Source: Vicinamibacteria bacterium (GTDB lineage Bacteria; Acidobacteriota; Vicinamibacteria; Marinacidobacterales; Marinacidobacteraceae). From it: a DNA stretch of 64,000 nt. A program made the position numbers and the translations under genes. Shown here in pieces: positions 4,961 to 18,045 of this stretch; positions within the stretch are counted from its first letter, which is position 1, and each line of letters opens with the position of its first letter. Below the pieces are notes generated by a model, which was given only the letters and a program-made list of their open reading frames with translations, ran no database searches and had not been told where the DNA came from. The stretch lies in the NCBI GenBank assembly GCA_963668695.2, contig CAXXLQ010000004.1, positions 1,824,001 to 1,888,000 of the forward strand, written 5' to 3'.

Positions 4961-6079
4961 ATGCGCCTCCGCTGGACCGAGATCCTCTGGAACGGGATCC
5001 TCCTGACCATCGTCGCGGCGGCACTACTGGCCACGCCGGCAGACGGCTACCGGTTCTTCGCGCGCCACGGCGGGCTCCACCGGATTGCGTCGGTGGCCGG
5101 CGCGATCCGCTGGGACGCCTCGGCGTTTCCGCTGCGGTTCCGGCTCCTCGAAAACGGCAACCTGCCGGACTTCGAGGGTCTCGACGCCGCGCTCTGGCGC
5201 GAGAGCGTGGAACGCGGCCTCCGCGCCTGGGCCGAAATCGGGACGGCCGACCTGGAACTGGTCCTGGATGAAGAAACGGTCGCCGACGACCAGGGCCGGG
5301 CGGGCGATGCGATCAACACCATCGGGTTTTCTTCGGCGGAGCGCGTCGCGGGCGGGCCCTTCGCCACCGCCGATGTGCAGTACACCGGAGGACGGGTGAC
5401 CGGCTGCGACGTTCACTTCAGTCCGGGATATCTCGATGGGTGGCCCGACGACGACGCGGCCGCGCGTGCGCAGGCGGCGGACCATCTGGCCCGGACCGTG
5501 ATGCACGAGGTGGGGCACTGCCTCGGGCTCGCCCACAGCGCGATGAATCCCACCTGGCTCGCCCGCCCCGAAACGATGGAACACCCCGAGGGGGATTTCC
5601 CGGAAGGCGTCACGAGCCTTCAGCCCCACCCGCGCATGTCCTACGGCACGATCCGCACGGTCACCCTGGAGCCCGATGACGCGGTCGGGGCGTCGCTCCT
5701 CTACCCGGCGCCGGGCTTTCTCGATTCCCGGGGGTCGCTCACCGGCCGGGTGGTGCTCGCGAGCGGCGAACCGGCTCCGTTCGTGTACGTGACGAGTGTC
5801 ATGTACACCGCCGACGGCGCGTTGTTCGGCCCGGGGGCGTTCACCGACTCCTGGGGGCAGTTCCTCCTCGAGGGTCTGGAGCCCGGCTTCCGCCACTTCT
5901 GGATCCGCCCGCTGCACCAACTGCTCGCCCACTCGTTCATCGGCGAGGCGGCGGGCGCCGGCACCCTCGAACTCCAGCACGAGCAGCGCTGGTTCGAGAT
6001 TCGTGCTGGAGAAACCACCCGGGCGCCGGACATCACGGTCCACCCCGCCCGCGACCGACGACGGGAGACGAGTCCGTGA
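4961..6079 (+). CDS. Secreted matrixin-like (metzincin) zinc metalloprotease with C-terminal beta-sandwich
   Basis: Signal peptide; HEVGHCLGLAH; Met-turn 'PRMSYG' and 'LEPDD.VG...LYP'. Confidence 0.8.
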   Translation: MRLRWTEILWNGILLTIVAAALLATPADGYRFFARHGGLHRIASVAGAIRWDASAFPLRFRLLENGNLPDFEGLDAALWRESVERGLRAWAEIGTADLELVLDEETVADDQGRAGDAINTIGFSSAERVAGGPFATADVQYTGGRVTGCDVHFSPGYLDGWPDDDAAARAQAADHLARTVMHEVGHCLGLAHSAMNPTWLARPETMEHPEGDFPEGVTSLQPHPRMSYGTIRTVTLEPDDAVGASLLYPAPGFLDSRGSLTGRVVLASGEPAPFVYVTSVMYTADGALFGPGAFTDSWGQFLLEGLEPGFRHFWIRPLHQLLAHSFIGEAAGAGTLELQHEQRWFEIRAGETTRAPDITVHPARDRRRETSP

Positions 6080-6989
6080 AGCGGCTCGTCGCGGGGCTCC
6101 TCCTCGCGTTCCTCGCCCTTGCCGGATGCGGTGACGATGCGGTGGTCACTCCTACCCCGCTCCCCCCGCCACCGCCTCCGCCCGGACCGTCGCCCCCGCC
6201 GCAGCCGGATCCCGACGCCATTCCGGTCGGTTTCGGCGGCGTGCTGCCCGCGCCGGGAACGGCGCTGACCCTCCACCCGGGGACCGAGTTCCTGATTCCG
6301 GTGATGGCGGACGCCGATCTGAGCGACTACGTGCGGCGTTCCGGCTGGACCGGCATTCCGGTACGGGTCGTGACCGACGCGCCGGCGGATGTCCTTTCCG
6401 TCTCCGGCGAGGTATCGGCCCAGGGCTGGGAGGACCCCGCGCTGCTGGCGATCCGGGCGCTGGAACCTGTGGAACCGGCCGGCTTCGACGAGACCTATGA
6501 GGTCCGCCTCGAACCTCCGCCGGAGGGCTTTCCCGAGCTGTTCGGGCTGTCCTTCCGGCTGGAAGCGGAACCCGTCCAGGTCCGGATCGCGGACCCGGGG
6601 CCGGACGGAGGTGGACTGCGACGGTCTTTCCCTCGCGGTTACGGGGGCCGTTCGCCGCGGCGATGGGGGTGCGGTCGGTGTCTCGTGGTTCGGGGACATC
6701 GGCAGCGACTACCGATCCGCCGACTTGACCCTGCGCTCTCCCATCGCAGGGGCCGAACTCCGCCTCGTGTCGGACTACCAGCCACTCCCGTACCGCGACT
6801 TCGGGGATGCCTACAACCTGTTCCCGGTCATGTTCGCCTTCGACCTCGATCTCGAGGAGACCCCGGCCGGTTTCGAGCAGACCCTCTCCGTCGCCTGGTT
6901 CGACGAGCTGCAAGCTGCGCGCCGCAGCTCCGGGCTGCGCCCCGATCGAGCTCCAATGCACCGCCCGCGGCCGCTGCCGAACGCGCTGA
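6076..6989 (+). pseudogene. Pro-linker lipoprotein, hypothetical; apparent frameshifts near 6600 and 6913
   Basis: Lipobox LAGC plus poly-Pro; protein-like sequence continues in the 6389-ORF frame (VDCDGLSL...WFDELQ), then in a third frame to the stop at 6989. Confidence 0.55.
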
Positions 6990-7002
6990 GGGGTGCCGTG
7001 CA

Positions 7003-7025
7003 GGGAACGCCGGTCTTCAGACCGG
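7003..7025 (+). repeat. REP-like palindrome
   Basis: GGGAACGCCGGTCTTCAGACCGG, same family as 1816 and 15662. Confidence 0.7.
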
Positions 7026-7270
7026 GATTTGTCGCCCGACAGGGCGACAAATCCCGCGCACTACGATTGCCGTCGGTAACGCCTTACGGCGGGTGGCGAC
7101 TGATTTCCGGCAATTGCGCAGCCGCGATAGCTGTCTCCTTGAAGTTGCGCTACAGGACCTAATAGACTGCTTTAAGTCTAGGTCTTCAACTCTAGTCTAA
7201 TCCTATGTTTTACACTTCATTACGGCTTGGATCGGCAGTCGCGTCCACTCGGTGCCTCCTCTCTTAGGTC

Positions 7271-7998
7271 ATGGCCACCACCACCGAAATCGAGTGGACC
7301 GACTCGACATGGAACCCGGTCACGGGTTGTACCCAGGTCGGCCCTGGATGCGACAACTGCTACGCGCTCAGGTTTGCGGAGCGGTGGCGCGGAATCGCCG
7401 ATCATCCCTACGAGCAGGGGTTCGACTTACGGCTCTGGCCATCACGACTGACCCACCCGCTGGGGTGGCGGCGGCCAAAGAGAATCTTCGTCAACTCGAT
7501 GAGCGATCTGTTTCACAAGAACGTGCCGGGAGAGTTCGTCGATGCCATCTTCGAAGTCATGGAAAAGGCCGACTGGCACACCTACCAGATTCTCACCAAG
7601 CGGAGCTCGCTCATGCGGAACTATGTTCGGCAGAGATATGCCTCGGACACTGTGCCTAGTCACATTTGGCCCGGTGTGTCGGTCGAGGATGCGGCGCACA
7701 AGGTCCGAATTGAGCACCTGCAGCAGATCAATTCGCCTGCGCGCTTTGTTTTTCCTTCGAACCACTGTTAGGCCCTATTGGTTCAGTGAATCTCTCTGGG
7801 ATTGCATGGGCTATCGTGGGCGGTGAGAGCGGGCCTGGTGCTCGGCGGATGGACGAGAACTGGGCTACCGAACTGCGGGACAGGTGTCAGGAGGAGAAGG
7901 TGGCCTTCTTCTTCAAGCAGTGGGGGGGCGTAAGGCCCAAATCAGGGGGCCGCCTCCTAGTTGGCGAAGAATGGAACGAATTCCCCGACATGTCATAG
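7271..7998 (+). pseudogene. DUF5131 (phage Gp37/Gp68-like, three-Cys motif) protein, frameshifted near 7750
   Basis: 'IEWTDSTWNPVTGCTQVGPGCDNCYA', 'FVNSMSDLFH', 'QILTKR'; 'FEPLLGPI...WAIVGGESGPGAR..FFFKQWGG' continues in another frame after the T-run at about 7749-7753. Confidence 0.85.
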
Positions 7999-15330: not shown

Positions 15331-15657
15331 ATGACCGAAGAAGCCACGAACGGAGCGACGCTCCACGATCAGGTCCTGGATGTACTGAAGACCTGCTACG
15401 ACCCCGAGATCCCGGTGGACATCTACGAGCTCGGCCTCGTCTACAAGGTGGACGTGGACGACGCCGGCAAGGTCTGTGTGGACATGACGCTGACCTCGCC
15501 GGCTTGTCCGGTCGCCGGCAGCCTCCCTCCCGAGGTGGAGCAGAAGATCAGCCGCGTCGAAGGCGTCTCGAACGTCCGGGTGGACCTGGTCTGGGATCCC
15601 CCCTGGAACCCCGACCGCATGTCCGAAGCCGCCAAACTCAAACTCGGATTCCTCTAG
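15331..15657 (+). CDS. sufT: DUF59 / SufT Fe-S assembly protein
   Basis: 'YDPEIPVDIYELGLVY', 'MTLTSPACP', 'WDPPW..DRMSEAAKL.LG'. Confidence 0.9.
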   Translation: MTEEATNGATLHDQVLDVLKTCYDPEIPVDIYELGLVYKVDVDDAGKVCVDMTLTSPACPVAGSLPPEVEQKISRVEGVSNVRVDLVWDPPWNPDRMSEAAKLKLGFL

Positions 15658-15661
15658 GGTA

Positions 15662-16010
15662 GGGAACGCCGGTCTCCAGACCGGCATCGCGGCCGAAGGC
15701 CGCGAAACTCCCATCGCTAACCGCGAAGAAGCGCGCGGACGGCTTGGAGCGCCGACCTCCGGTCGGCACAGCGGCCCGTAGGGCTGCGGCGGTGAAGAAG
15801 CCCAACTCCCGGAACGGTTCCCATCTCGGCCCGTACCCCACTTGGCGCGATGGCCCGGCAGGCCAGGGAACGCCGGTGTTCAGACCGGCACGGCGGCCCG
15901 CAGGGCCGCGGCGGTGAAGAAGCCCAACTCCTGGAACGGTTCTCATCTCGGCGCCTACCCCAACGGACAGGTGGCGCCGCGCCCGGGAACGCCGGTGTTC
16001 ACACCGGCAC
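15662..16010 (+). repeat. Tandem cluster of four REP-like palindromes with partly repeated linkers (BIME-like)
   Basis: Hairpin units at about 15662, 15746, 15866 and 15985; linker 'GCGGCGGTGAAGAAGCCCAACTCC.GGAACGGTTC' occurs twice. Confidence 0.8.
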
Positions 16011-16154
16011 CGCCCCGCGCAGCGGGGCGAGACGGCGTACCTCCCCGTTCCGTGATGGGGCACGTCTCGGTCCGGACCCCGACCCATCCCTCGGCCCGGC
16101 AAACTGGGAACTTCAGGCAGTTTTTCCCATCGAACCCTTCAGACCCCCATCGCG

Positions 16155-16770
16155 TCAGTCCTCCTCGCCGCGGAGCCGCCGGATGTGCGCCCAGCGTTCT
16201 CTCAACCACTTCGATTGTCCCGGCAGCAGCTCGCACCGCCCCATGTCGTCCTCCTGCGCTTGGCTCCAGATCATCGAGTTGCCCATCCACCGCCAGCCGC
16301 CGCAGCGTTCGCACGTACGGCTGACACAGTTGTAGGGAAGGCTCATTGCCGTTCCGTGGCACCGGGGGCAATCCGGGCACACGGGTTCCGCGTCTTTAAC
16401 AGCCTGTGGTGAAACCCACGTGAGCGCCGAGACCGGCCAGTTCTCCCGGTGGGGGCGAGGCGCCCGGCTGACAAGGCGCGTGAGGGAGGAATACCGCGTG
16501 TATTTCGACCGAAACGCAACGATGAGCGGCGCGAAGCGGCGCGGTTCAGCCGGGATGGATCGCCGGTCGAACGCCGTGTGGGTTTTGCCACAGGCTGTTA
16601 AGGTCAACCCTTGGCAGGTCCACGGGGTCATGGGTGCCGCTCGGAAGGAGTGCGTACCAGCTTCGGCCCGGTCCCTCCGCGTCGAGCTTGACGAGCAACC
16701 CGGCCCCGGCGGCGCCAAGATCGGCGATCCCGGCCACCTTATCGAATCTGATGGGACGGATCCTGGTCAC
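16155..16770 (-). pseudogene. Cys-rich (putative Zn-binding) hypothetical protein, 137 aa when reconstructed, interrupted by a MITE
   Basis: RBS GAGGAG plus GTG at 16770; removing 16400-16597 and one TTAA gives 414 nt in frame: ...PVDLPRVDLKDAEPVCPDCPRCHG...CERCGGW... Confidence 0.7.
16400..16597 (+). mobile_element. MITE copy 1 (198 bp), TTAA target duplication
   Basis: TIR CAGCCTGTGG...CCACAGGCTG; TTAA at 16396-16399 and 16598-16601; homologous to the copies at 40157, 50852 and 63786. Confidence 0.9.
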
Positions 16771-16784
16771 TTCAAACTCCTCCG

Positions 16785-17132
16785 TCAGCAAGACCGACCG
16801 CTCCGCGGCGCGGCGCCGGCCGGAGCGCAGTCGGCCAGCAGCCCGTCGACGGCGGTAGTCGCCCTGTCGAGCGCCCAGCGGACGGCTTCCAGCCGCGCCG
16901 CCAGCAGCGCTGCTGCCCTCTGCCGCTCCGGAGTGGCGGTTCGTCGCTCGGCGACCTGAAGCGCCAGCCGGCGATCCCGGAGCAACTCTCCGAGATCGGC
17001 GAAGGCGGCGCCGCAGGCGACGAAGCTCACCGAGGTAGCGGAGACCGACTCGGCGAGCACGTCGTCCGGCGACTCGTGCGGCGGGCGGGGGAGGCCGGCG
17101 GCCGCGGCAGGAAGGGTGTGGTGTTGGGGCAT
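16785..17132 (-). CDS. Hypothetical helical protein (115 aa), first gene downstream of the SAM-I/IV riboswitch
   Basis: Strong RBS AAGGAGA before ATG; stop abuts the RBS of the next gene; no recognisable motif. Confidence 0.6.
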   Translation of the reverse strand: MPQHHTLPAAAAGLPRPPHESPDDVLAESVSATSVSFVACGAAFADLGELLRDRRLALQVAERRTATPERQRAAALLAARLEAVRWALDRATTAVDGLLADCAPAGAAPRSGRSC

Positions 17133-17177
17133 GGCGTTTCTCCTTGGATTGCATCCGAGGAGGGCGGAAGCCCCGTA

Positions 17178-17283
17178 GGTCCGCTTGGTTGCCTTGCGGC
17201 CACATCTCCGGTTTCGGACGCCACCTTGCCCGGACCGGGCAGGTTGGCGGGGTACGCGATTGCGTAGCCCCCTCTGGATGCTG
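17178..17283 (-). ncRNA. SAM-I/IV-class riboswitch aptamer
   Basis: Minus strand: P1 GCAUC/GAUGU, J1/2 CAGAG, P2 GGGG..CCCC with no kink-turn, P3 GCCAACC-UGCCC-GGUCC-GGGCA-AGGUGGC, P4 UCCG/CGGA, P5 GCC-GCAA-GGC, linker AACCAA, 3' tail GGACC pairing with the P3 loop (PK2). Confidence 0.85.
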
Positions 17284-17353
17284 ACCCGCAGCCTAGCCGG
17301 GATCGCGCTTCGACGCTACTGGTGGCTCGCTGTACGTGATGAACGAAAGTGGC

Positions 17354-17381
17354 GCTTTACATCATCATGATGAGGTAAAGC
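17354..17381. promoter_or_regulatory. 28-bp near-perfect palindrome (operator or terminator-like)
   Basis: GCTTTACATCATCA|TGATGAGGTAAAGC, 13/14 symmetric, between the vapC stop and the riboswitch. Confidence 0.45.
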
Positions 17382-17424
17382 GGCGGTTTCACTGATCAGT
17401 GAATGCCGTGTCCCACCGCAATCG

Positions 17425-17811
17425 CTACCAGAGCCGCCGGACGCCGTATCGGTCGAACACCGACTCGTTCGAGACGAGAACGAGATCGTGGATGAGCGCC
17501 TGGGCGATCAGCATTCTGTCGAACGGATCACGGAGCGGCCCCGATAGACCGCCCGCCCGACTCGCATCGCGAACCGTGATGCCTAGTTCGGCGAAGCCCT
17601 GTCCCGCAATCCCGGACCGAACATCCTGCGCGATCAGTTCGCCCCCCGACAGTTTGCCGAGGCGGTGTTTCGTCGTGATCTCCCAAGCCGAAGCGGCGCT
17701 AACAAGAATCTCGTTCGTTTCATTGGCTATGGCGCGGCGGGCTGGCGTGGACAGCCGTTCGCTGCCGCTCAACCACCACAGGAAAGTGTGCGTATCGAGG
17801 AGCAGCCGCAC
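17425..17811 (-). CDS. vapC: VapC-family PIN-domain toxin
   Basis: 'LLLDTHTFLWW', 'VSAASAWEI..K...GKL', 'RDPFDRMLIAQA'. Confidence 0.93.
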   Translation of the reverse strand: MRLLLDTHTFLWWLSGSERLSTPARRAIANETNEILVSAASAWEITTKHRLGKLSGGELIAQDVRSGIAGQGFAELGITVRDASRAGGLSGPLRDPFDRMLIAQALIHDLVLVSNESVFDRYGVRRLW

Positions 17812-17814
17812 CGG

Positions 17815-18045
17815 CTACCTCTCCCAGGCTTCCAGCTCGGTTTCCGGGAGCGGTTCGAAGAAGCTGTCGGGCACGACGAGCCGTCCCTCCATCGCACCGA
17901 ACTGCCGCTTTCCGCGCTCTTTGCACGGAACGAGCCGAGCCACGGGAGTGCCGTTGCGGGCGATGACCACCTCTTCTCCCGCTTCAACCTGAGCCAGCAG
18001 GCGGGAGAGATGCGTCTTGGCCTGATGGACATTCACCGTAGCCAT
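17815..18045 (-). CDS. Phd/YefM-family antitoxin
   Basis: 'VNVHQAKTHLSRLL..VEAGEEVVIARNGTPVARLVP'. Confidence 0.93.
   Translation of the reverse strand: MATVNVHQAKTHLSRLLAQVEAGEEVVIARNGTPVARLVPCKERGKRQFGAMEGRLVVPDSFFEPLPETELEAWER

Follow-up and report, generated by a model that had tools for sequence, protein, structure and literature searches.

We analysed a 64-kb stretch of DNA (the window) from a metagenome-assembled genome (MAG) of the class Vicinamibacteria. On its minus strand it carries an S-adenosylmethionine (SAM) riboswitch of the SAM-I/IV class, followed by two small open reading frames, ORF1 and ORF2, the second of which is split by a miniature inverted-repeat transposable element (MITE). 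SAM riboswitches normally lead methionine-pathway operons, and following up genes of unassigned function behind riboswitches is a time-honoured way of discovering new biology of the metabolite that is sensed. The following features were recognized at the locus, SD standing for Shine-Dalgarno sequence:

17175–17286, minus strand: SAM-I/IV riboswitch aptamer with P1–P3, an inserted hairpin UCCG/CGGA, a GCAA-capped hairpin and a pseudoknot GGUCC/GGACC between the P3 loop and the 3' tail (cmscan)
17140–17174, minus strand: expression platform, with a small hairpin (17161–17174), the switching strand CCCUCCUCGGAUGC (17151–17164) and a predicted SD-sequestering hairpin (17140–17162) over the SD AAGGAG (17140–17145) (folding, alignment)
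16785–17132, minus strand: ORF1, a lineage-restricted helical-hairpin protein of 115 aa, the first cistron after the riboswitch (ORF list, homologues, selection)
16599–16783, minus strand: 5' part of ORF2 up to the MITE site, with the SD GGAGGAG (16777–16783) and a GTG start (16768–16770) (sequence, homologues)
16397–16600, no strand assigned: MITE of 200 nt (16399–16598) with terminal inverted repeats of 21–24 nt and a duplicated TA at 16599–16600 and 16397–16398 (repeats, copies, empty site)
16155–16398, minus strand: 3' part of ORF2, with a zinc-ribbon-like CxxC...CxxC motif, C-terminal helices and the stop at 16155–16157 (alignment)
17425–18045, minus strand: vapBC-type pair, with a PIN toxin (17425–17811) and a Phd/YefM antitoxin (17815–18045), a neighbour outside the riboswitch unit (Pfam)

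The riboswitch and its two downstream genes

The sole Rfam family found above threshold by cmscan of the whole window was SAM-I/IV (RF01725). It matched at 17175–17286 on the minus strand with 52.6 bits (E 9.3e-6; gathering score 41.1 bits) over model positions 1–99 of 99, and this was also the single SAM-I/IV match in the 4.1-Mb genome (genome-wide E 1.4e-7). A first-pass annotation of the window, made from the letters alone, had named the class and listed its elements, and the cmscan alignment bears it out: recognizable are P1 (GCAUC/GAUGU), the joining region J1/2 (CAGAG), P3 (GCCAACCUGCC.../...GGCAAGGUGGC), the GCAA-capped hairpin, and the P3-loop GGUCC facing the 3' GGACC. P2 is a simple stem in which a single base is bulged, and it lacks the internal loop (k-turn) of SAM-I; in two of 15 relatives it is shortened to GGGGGG-CA-ACCCCC. 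The five pairs of the pseudoknot can form in 15 of 15 sequences and are all invariant, signifying pairing potential without covariation. Judged by its covariance-model match, the RNA is a genuine SAM-I/IV riboswitch and its aptamer an ordinary member of the class.

The class was described as "SAM-I-IV-variant" from several phyla and marine metagenomes, with a P2 that has no k-turn (Weinberg et al. 2010, PMC2864571). As far as that description reaches, the RNA in the window is similar in matching the full model above threshold, in its SAM-I-like core, its P2 without internal loop, its pseudoknot and its marine/metagenomic lineage. Unlike typical RF01725 members as outlined there, it has an extra small hairpin in the J3/1 region. 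It also differs in preceding an orphan protein, not a Met/SAM enzyme, and in being found once per genome in a host family of the Vicinamibacteria.

ORF1 had been predicted to encode a helical protein of 115 aa, in agreement with its AlphaFold2 model. Built from 15 sequences, the model is a hairpin of two long helices (residues 22–65 and 68–102), with a mean predicted local distance difference test score (pLDDT) of 70. Clear homologues were found in 14 of the 15 other congeners and in one genome of a sister genus, out of 61 related genomes searched; the relatives are marine and sponge-derived MAGs of the class Vicinamibacteria, Acidobacteriota. Within the window's genus the protein has 109–127 aa and is always preceded by the riboswitch. 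The ORF1 frame was open in all 15 homologues, the sole such frame of the six. Its core (residues 26–103) gave a median pairwise ratio of nonsynonymous to synonymous substitution (dN/dS) of 0.35, and 0.34 among the 36 pairs in which both genomes lack the met genes described below. The dN/dS of the other five frames was 0.43–2.25, with four of them at 1.0–2.3 and each with stops in at least four of the 15 sequences; the value of 0.43 came from the mirror antisense frame, which had stops in five. Twenty-seven residues were invariant. This pattern of substitution marks ORF1 as a real gene under purifying selection. In the sister-genus genome, G020, one TGA lies within the ORF1 match.

The first-pass annotation had recognized neither protein, and neither ORF1 nor ORF2 matched a known family in our searches of Pfam, NCBIfam, PHROGs and PADLOC. 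ORF1 has 34 close clusters in a collection of 5.8 billion proteins, none of them named, and a profile search of 1.84 billion representatives returned 12 proteins only. The structure and profile searches suggested at first pass gave no significant match: Foldseek of the model against PDB had zero matches at E ≤ 0.001 and returned generic helical hairpins only, the best hit of the PDB sequence-profile search had an E of 0.36, and the ESM Atlas held no usable match. Longer or fused forms of ORF1 were not found at E ≤ 0.001, a search that is in itself weak evidence. Weak matches outside the family, in six genomes (E 9e-4 to 9e-3), were treated as chance.

The second product had been read as a Cys-rich protein of 137 aa. 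No start codon exists 137 codons upstream of the stop at 16155, the product readable from the uncorrected sequence is half MITE, and the true gene is interrupted. ORF2 begins 14 bases after ORF1, at a GTG (16770) preceded by an SD of its own; the frame from this start closes at 16546, and another frame runs to 16155. The listed open frame (16155–16718, 187 aa from TTG) passes through the MITE. When the MITE and one TA copy are removed, an open frame of 137 codons results, with 77% identity over 133 residues to a protein of genome G004. The same genome provides the empty site, reading GACCTGAAAGAC where this genome reads GACCT-TA-(element)-TA-AAGAC.

A non-autonomous, TA-duplicating MITE thus splits ORF2 here. 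Its inverted repeat has 24 nt with 92% complementarity, and it contains no ORF. It gave 88 matches in the genome, of which about 35, besides the copy here, span at least 195 of 206 nt at 79–96% identity; TA was present on both sides in eight of the ten copies inspected. Contigs of two other studies cross a junction between element and gene, so the insertion cannot stem from an assembly error in this MAG. The empty-site allele, as a contig joining across the MITE, was not found among the assembled contigs of four runs. Bacterial MITEs of the Tc1/IS630 type (Stowaway-like) are non-coding elements of about 200 nt, with terminal inverted repeats, TA duplication and tens of copies. The MITE in the window is similar in size, inverted repeats, TA duplication, copy number and lack of coding capacity, and unlike the described ones its family is undescribed as far as checked. 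Some of its copies form head-to-tail or nested partial arrays, for example at C4:3215404-3215967 and C4:2574726-2575412.

The ORF2 family comprised 24 clusters, 22 of them with 136–161 aa, sharing a conserved N-terminal part and a basic helical tail. Four cysteines (CxxC...CxxC) were near-invariant in the 24-row alignment. The family is real and confined to the lineage. The AlphaFold2 model (pLDDT 47.9) was too poor for a structure search. All three species representatives that carry ORF2 have it damaged: by the MITE here, by a frameshift in G008, and by duplication damage in G004. The latter (L013/L042, oriented 6001-7459) has a tandem ORF1-ORF2 duplication, in which the first ORF2 copy, its stop lost, reads in frame into ORF1 copy 2 from about residue 16 on, and the second is interrupted by an internal stop codon. 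Intact forms of ORF2 are found among many metagenome-derived proteins (the 22 full-length clusters). A metagenome contig, L077, carries vapC and the riboswitch together with ORF1 and ORF2; it shows an ATGA overlap, and ORF2 stays open to the contig end.

The locus in related genomes

The first-pass annotation had proposed to check whether homologues keep the riboswitch, and those of ORF1 do. RF01725 was found above threshold (44.2–58.8 bits) directly upstream of ORF1 in all 14 congeneric loci fetched, as well as in the sister-genus locus of G020 (61 bits) and on L077, an independent contig of 1 kb (45.5 bits). In the family as a whole, 19 of 28 genomes had a match, 18 of them above the cut-off and with a maximum of one per genome, and none of 27 genomes from the order's other two families had one. 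G001 is without both riboswitch and ORF1. The stretch from P1 to the start codon had a mean column identity of 89% over 15 sequences. The median pairwise identity of the RNA (P1 to SD) was 0.90, rising to 0.915 when only genomes without met genes are compared. The synonymous divergence of ORF1 (pS) was 0.35–0.6 for most pairs, signifying that conservation of the RNA is far above that of neutral sites.

Two further elements were noted. G023, which belongs to another genus of the family, has a SAM-I/IV riboswitch scoring 53.2 bits (L074 547-2297); its SD/AUG context is the same, and the protein behind it, of 530 aa, had no match in Pfam, NCBIfam or PADLOC. In G018 (L076 691-4024), a MoxR-like AAA_5 ATPase is preceded by a SAM-I/IV-like element that has enlarged loops and scores below threshold (35.9 bits), and the next long frame matches DUF2201_N and an S-AdoMet-synthetase domain.

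In six of the 17 riboswitch-ORF1 loci (G010, G015, G014, G011, G007, and G020 from the other genus), ORF1 is followed by three genes. They encode a 286-aa amino-acid-kinase protein (PF00696, 103 bits), an aspartate-semialdehyde dehydrogenase (asd; PF01118/PF02774), and a Cys/Met pyridoxal-phosphate enzyme of the O-acetylhomoserine sulfhydrylase type (metY; PF01053). The best NCBIfam matches of the kinase were all aspartate kinases (TIGR00656, 144 bits against a cut-off of 402, positions 3–247 of 407). This match covers the catalytic part only, and no ACT domains were found in the kinase; we therefore call its gene aspartate-kinase-like. The stop of ORF1 and the start of the kinase gene share bases, as ATGA or GTGA, so that control of ORF1 translation would extend to the enzymes of the methionine branch. 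In a third genus, represented by G016, the riboswitch lies directly before the kinase; the N-terminal extension of this kinase opens with the N-terminus of ORF1, a structure expected if the ORF1 core had been deleted in frame. In all relatives the locus sits between a peptidase C26/GATase gene and a convergent suf operon.

Because the riboswitch-ORF1 unit leads kinase, asd and metY in six loci, the ancestral regulon would be ordinary methionine-branch biosynthesis. We infer that the ancestral operon consisted of the riboswitch, ORF1, an ACT-less aspartate kinase, asd and metY. In G020, the kinase gene (L053 6240-7370) has a stop in its stretch and an irregular frame relation to asd, and may be frameshifted or a pseudogene.

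The order riboswitch-ORF1-ORF2 recurs in four loci (this genome, G000, as well as G004, G008 and contig L077). Nucleotide comparison revealed that ORF2 and the kinase gene have their first ~35 nt (~12 codons) in common, suggesting that the second cistron was exchanged downstream of about codon 12. Short remnants of this shared start were found after ORF1 in G012, G005, G013, G006 and G003, and none in G009 and G002. By hhalign, the ORF2 family and the kinase aligned over the first 13 residues only, and weakly (probability 13%, E 0.0022). A source for the remaining ORF2 sequence was not found in the loci examined.

In this genome, the genes downstream of the riboswitch are ORF1 and the broken ORF2, without a Met, SAM or sulfur gene; such genes follow in the six relatives and in G016. 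The MAG has a completeness of 91.7% and a contamination of 9.3%. We found in it no match to the riboswitch-linked kinase and no asd domain. The best MetY match was a 46%-identical paralogue elsewhere in the genome, adjoining a metX-like gene, and homoserine dehydrogenase and metK were present. None of the 16 genomes of the genus (MAGs, about 90% complete) had an aspartate kinase above the TIGR00657 cut-off. Partial aspartate-kinase matches (about 100 bits) were confined to the five genomes with the met genes and correspond to the riboswitch-linked genes, leaving 11 of the 16 without a recognizable aspartate kinase. The locus thereby flags a genus seemingly without this enzyme, which may depend on its host or community for aspartate-family precursors.

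The spacer at 15690–16150, between the ORF2 stop and a convergent sufT, is where relatives carry kinase, asd and metY. Here it consists of short dispersed repeats, with 51 further genome matches of 34–180 nt. In several searches, among them those with MetY and with the spacer, contigs C1 and C4 were hit with identical scores (e.g., C1:122536-123159 and C4:325682-326305 for MetY). C1 probably duplicates part of C4, which fits the contamination/redundancy estimate of 9.3%.

Predicted control of ORF1 translation

The first-pass annotation had proposed a hairpin over the SD and an alternative pairing of the same strand with the 5' end of the aptamer, and we recovered both. The hairpin CUCCU-C-GGAU-GCA-AUCC-A-AGGAG (17140–17162) covers the SD, seven bases before the ORF1 ATG. 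In the minimum free energy (MFE) fold of 17120–17290, the aptamer 5' strand GCAUCC-A-GAGG pairs with CCUC-GGAUGC (CCUCGGAUGC), leaving the SD exposed. The MFE was -77.8 kcal/mol (z = -3.2), and none of 200 shuffles folded equally well.

The switching strand was invariant in all 15 aligned sequences. P1, P3, the pseudoknot and P5 were paired in 100% of the alignment cells, and the bound-state structure in 94.8%. The helix that opposes P1 (anti-P1) was paired in 99% of cells and the SD-sequestor helix in 86%, against 38–57% for slid-partner controls. The lone compensatory change concerns one pair of the inserted hairpin, C-G in seven sequences and U-A in six. A scan of 15600–17500 for consensus promoters and terminators returned zero sites of either kind.

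On binding of SAM, P1 would form and the invariant strand CCCUCCUCGGAUG would be released to pair with the SD of ORF1, which would remain untranslated. At low SAM, the strand would be held by the 5' side of the aptamer, keeping the SD open, and ORF1 would be made. In relatives, the kinase and probably asd and metY would follow ORF1 translation via the overlapping start. Such a translational OFF switch, as put forward at first pass, is plausible, with its helices conserved and no terminator found. An RNA-library run, X10, contained assembled contigs over 17093–17285 and 16568–16904, for which DNA carry-over is possible.

Control of met genes at the level of translation has been described for the SAM-I met-operon switch of Xanthomonas (PMC7270179) and for the SAM-V riboswitch of metY (PMC6061858). 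These switches agree with our locus in SAM-dependent control of translation initiation, here predicted, and in methionine-branch genes including metY as targets. In contrast to the switches as presented there, the aptamer belongs to another class, the first cistron is a non-enzymatic orphan passing control by a stop/start overlap, and the enzymes are gone from this genome.

Interpretation of the locus

We consider it highly probable that the riboswitch is the leader of a methionine-branch operon that has been eroded in this genome, in which riboswitch and ORF1 remain intact. The order of events is our reconstruction from the comparison of loci. The window's lineage would have lost kinase, asd and metY, and the second cistron would have been replaced by ORF2, a 137-aa zinc-ribbon protein keeping the first ~12 codons of the kinase gene. 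Later, a TA-duplicating MITE split ORF2 in this genome, leaving ORF1 as the remaining intact product, predicted to be made only at low SAM. Comparison with relatives in this way accounts for most of the oddity of the locus, its regulon being an eroded aspartate-kinase/asd/metY operon. It also raises the question why a SAM riboswitch and a 115-aa orphan both stay under selection after enzyme loss.

Several points weigh against this interpretation. The direction of change, loss or gain, is judged from a single outgroup genus with the met arrangement (G020) and a single one with the fused form (G016). As ORF2 is intact elsewhere, the term "eroded operon" applies to this genome rather than to the clade as a whole, and given the completeness of the MAG the enzyme absences are provisional. 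ORF1 evolves fast, with 47–70% aa identity within the genus against 92–96% for MetY, and its N- and C-termini are near-neutral (dN/dS about 0.9). With respect to the switch, no pair of the anti-P1 and SD-sequestor helices showed a compensatory change. The near-zero covariation in both helices arises because the sequences are almost invariant; the switch model is compatible with the conservation data and plausible, unproven by covariation.

The first-pass annotation had instead regarded riboswitch, ORF1 and ORF2 as an undescribed, dedicated non-metabolic module responding to SAM depletion, for example by sensing phage SAM lyases, in an accessory patch with vapBC. This would fit the purifying selection on ORF1 and riboswitch in ten genomes without the met genes, the recurrence of the three-part order in four loci, the conservation of the ORF2 family in 22 full-length clusters, and the lack of a metabolic family match for either protein. 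We nevertheless hold it to be very unlikely. In six of 17 loci riboswitch and ORF1 lead aspartate kinase, asd and metY with translational coupling, ORF2 borrows the start of the kinase gene, and it is broken in all three species representatives. ORF1 and two ORF2 homologues had no PADLOC (PADLOC-DB 2.0) or PHROGs match at E ≤ 0.1, no phage genes were seen at the locus, whose position is fixed between the peptidase C26 gene and the suf operon, and nothing links it to SAM lyases. The vapBC pair adjoins the riboswitch unit in four of 17 loci only.

This module and two further readings concern the role of ORF1 and do not exclude the eroded-operon description. By the first of the further two, riboswitch and ORF1 are a non-functional relic in this genome, ORF1 having been merely a leader cistron (through coupling or Rho polarity) that now drifts. 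The ATGA overlap with the kinase start points this way, as do the fast evolution and neutral-looking termini of ORF1, and no family, fold or fusion assigns it a function. G016 manages without the ORF1 core, and G001 without riboswitch and ORF1. A relic is however improbable, given the core dN/dS of 0.34 among the 36 met-less pairs, against 1.0–2.3 in four of the five other frames, the open frame in 15 of 15 sequences, riboswitch scores that are all above threshold and the RNA identity of 0.915 among met-less genomes; a leader serving only for coupling would not retain 27 invariant residues. We see a slimmer chance still that ORF1 serves the ACT-less aspartate kinase as an accessory or regulatory subunit, substituting for the missing ACT domains. 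Aspartate kinase models match this protein in their catalytic part only, and the start/stop overlap favours equimolar synthesis, but ORF1 is under selection in ten genomes where no aspartate-kinase-like gene was found, and the kinase of G016 occurs without the ORF1 core.

That met-less genomes keep both ORF1 and the RNA under selection argues for an activity of ORF1 in its own right. We tentatively suggest, as a possibility on the unlikely side, that ORF1 (together with ORF2, where intact) is a small-protein output induced by SAM starvation and independent of biosynthesis, for which alone the riboswitch has been kept. It would relay methyl-donor status to targets such as uptake, methyltransferase control or growth arrest. 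If so, this would be a riboswitch whose sole product is a signalling protein. As to the nature of ORF1, our guess is that it is a small protein with a regulatory or adaptor role connected with the aspartate-to-methionine branch.

Literature searches, which did not extend to the supplementary SAM-I/IV gene contexts of Weinberg 2010, returned no paper on the association of riboswitch and ORF1. New here are a lineage-restricted orphan first cistron outliving its enzymes, the exchange of the gene behind it at a conserved coupling site, and the MITE insertion. The locus illustrates the remodelling of operons by MITEs and gene replacement in sponge- or marine-associated Acidobacteriota.

Next to the riboswitch unit in this genome lies the vapBC-type pair, with a PIN toxin (PF01850, 52.1 bits) and a Phd/YefM antitoxin (PF02604, 45.3 bits) encoded 3 nt apart on the same strand. 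The first-pass annotation was right about this neighbour for the window, and the adjacency is variable among the loci. In the relatively A+T-rich spacer between vapC and the riboswitch we noted a 34-nt imperfect palindrome (79% complementary) at 17337–17398, which could be a promoter/operator region or another small repeat.

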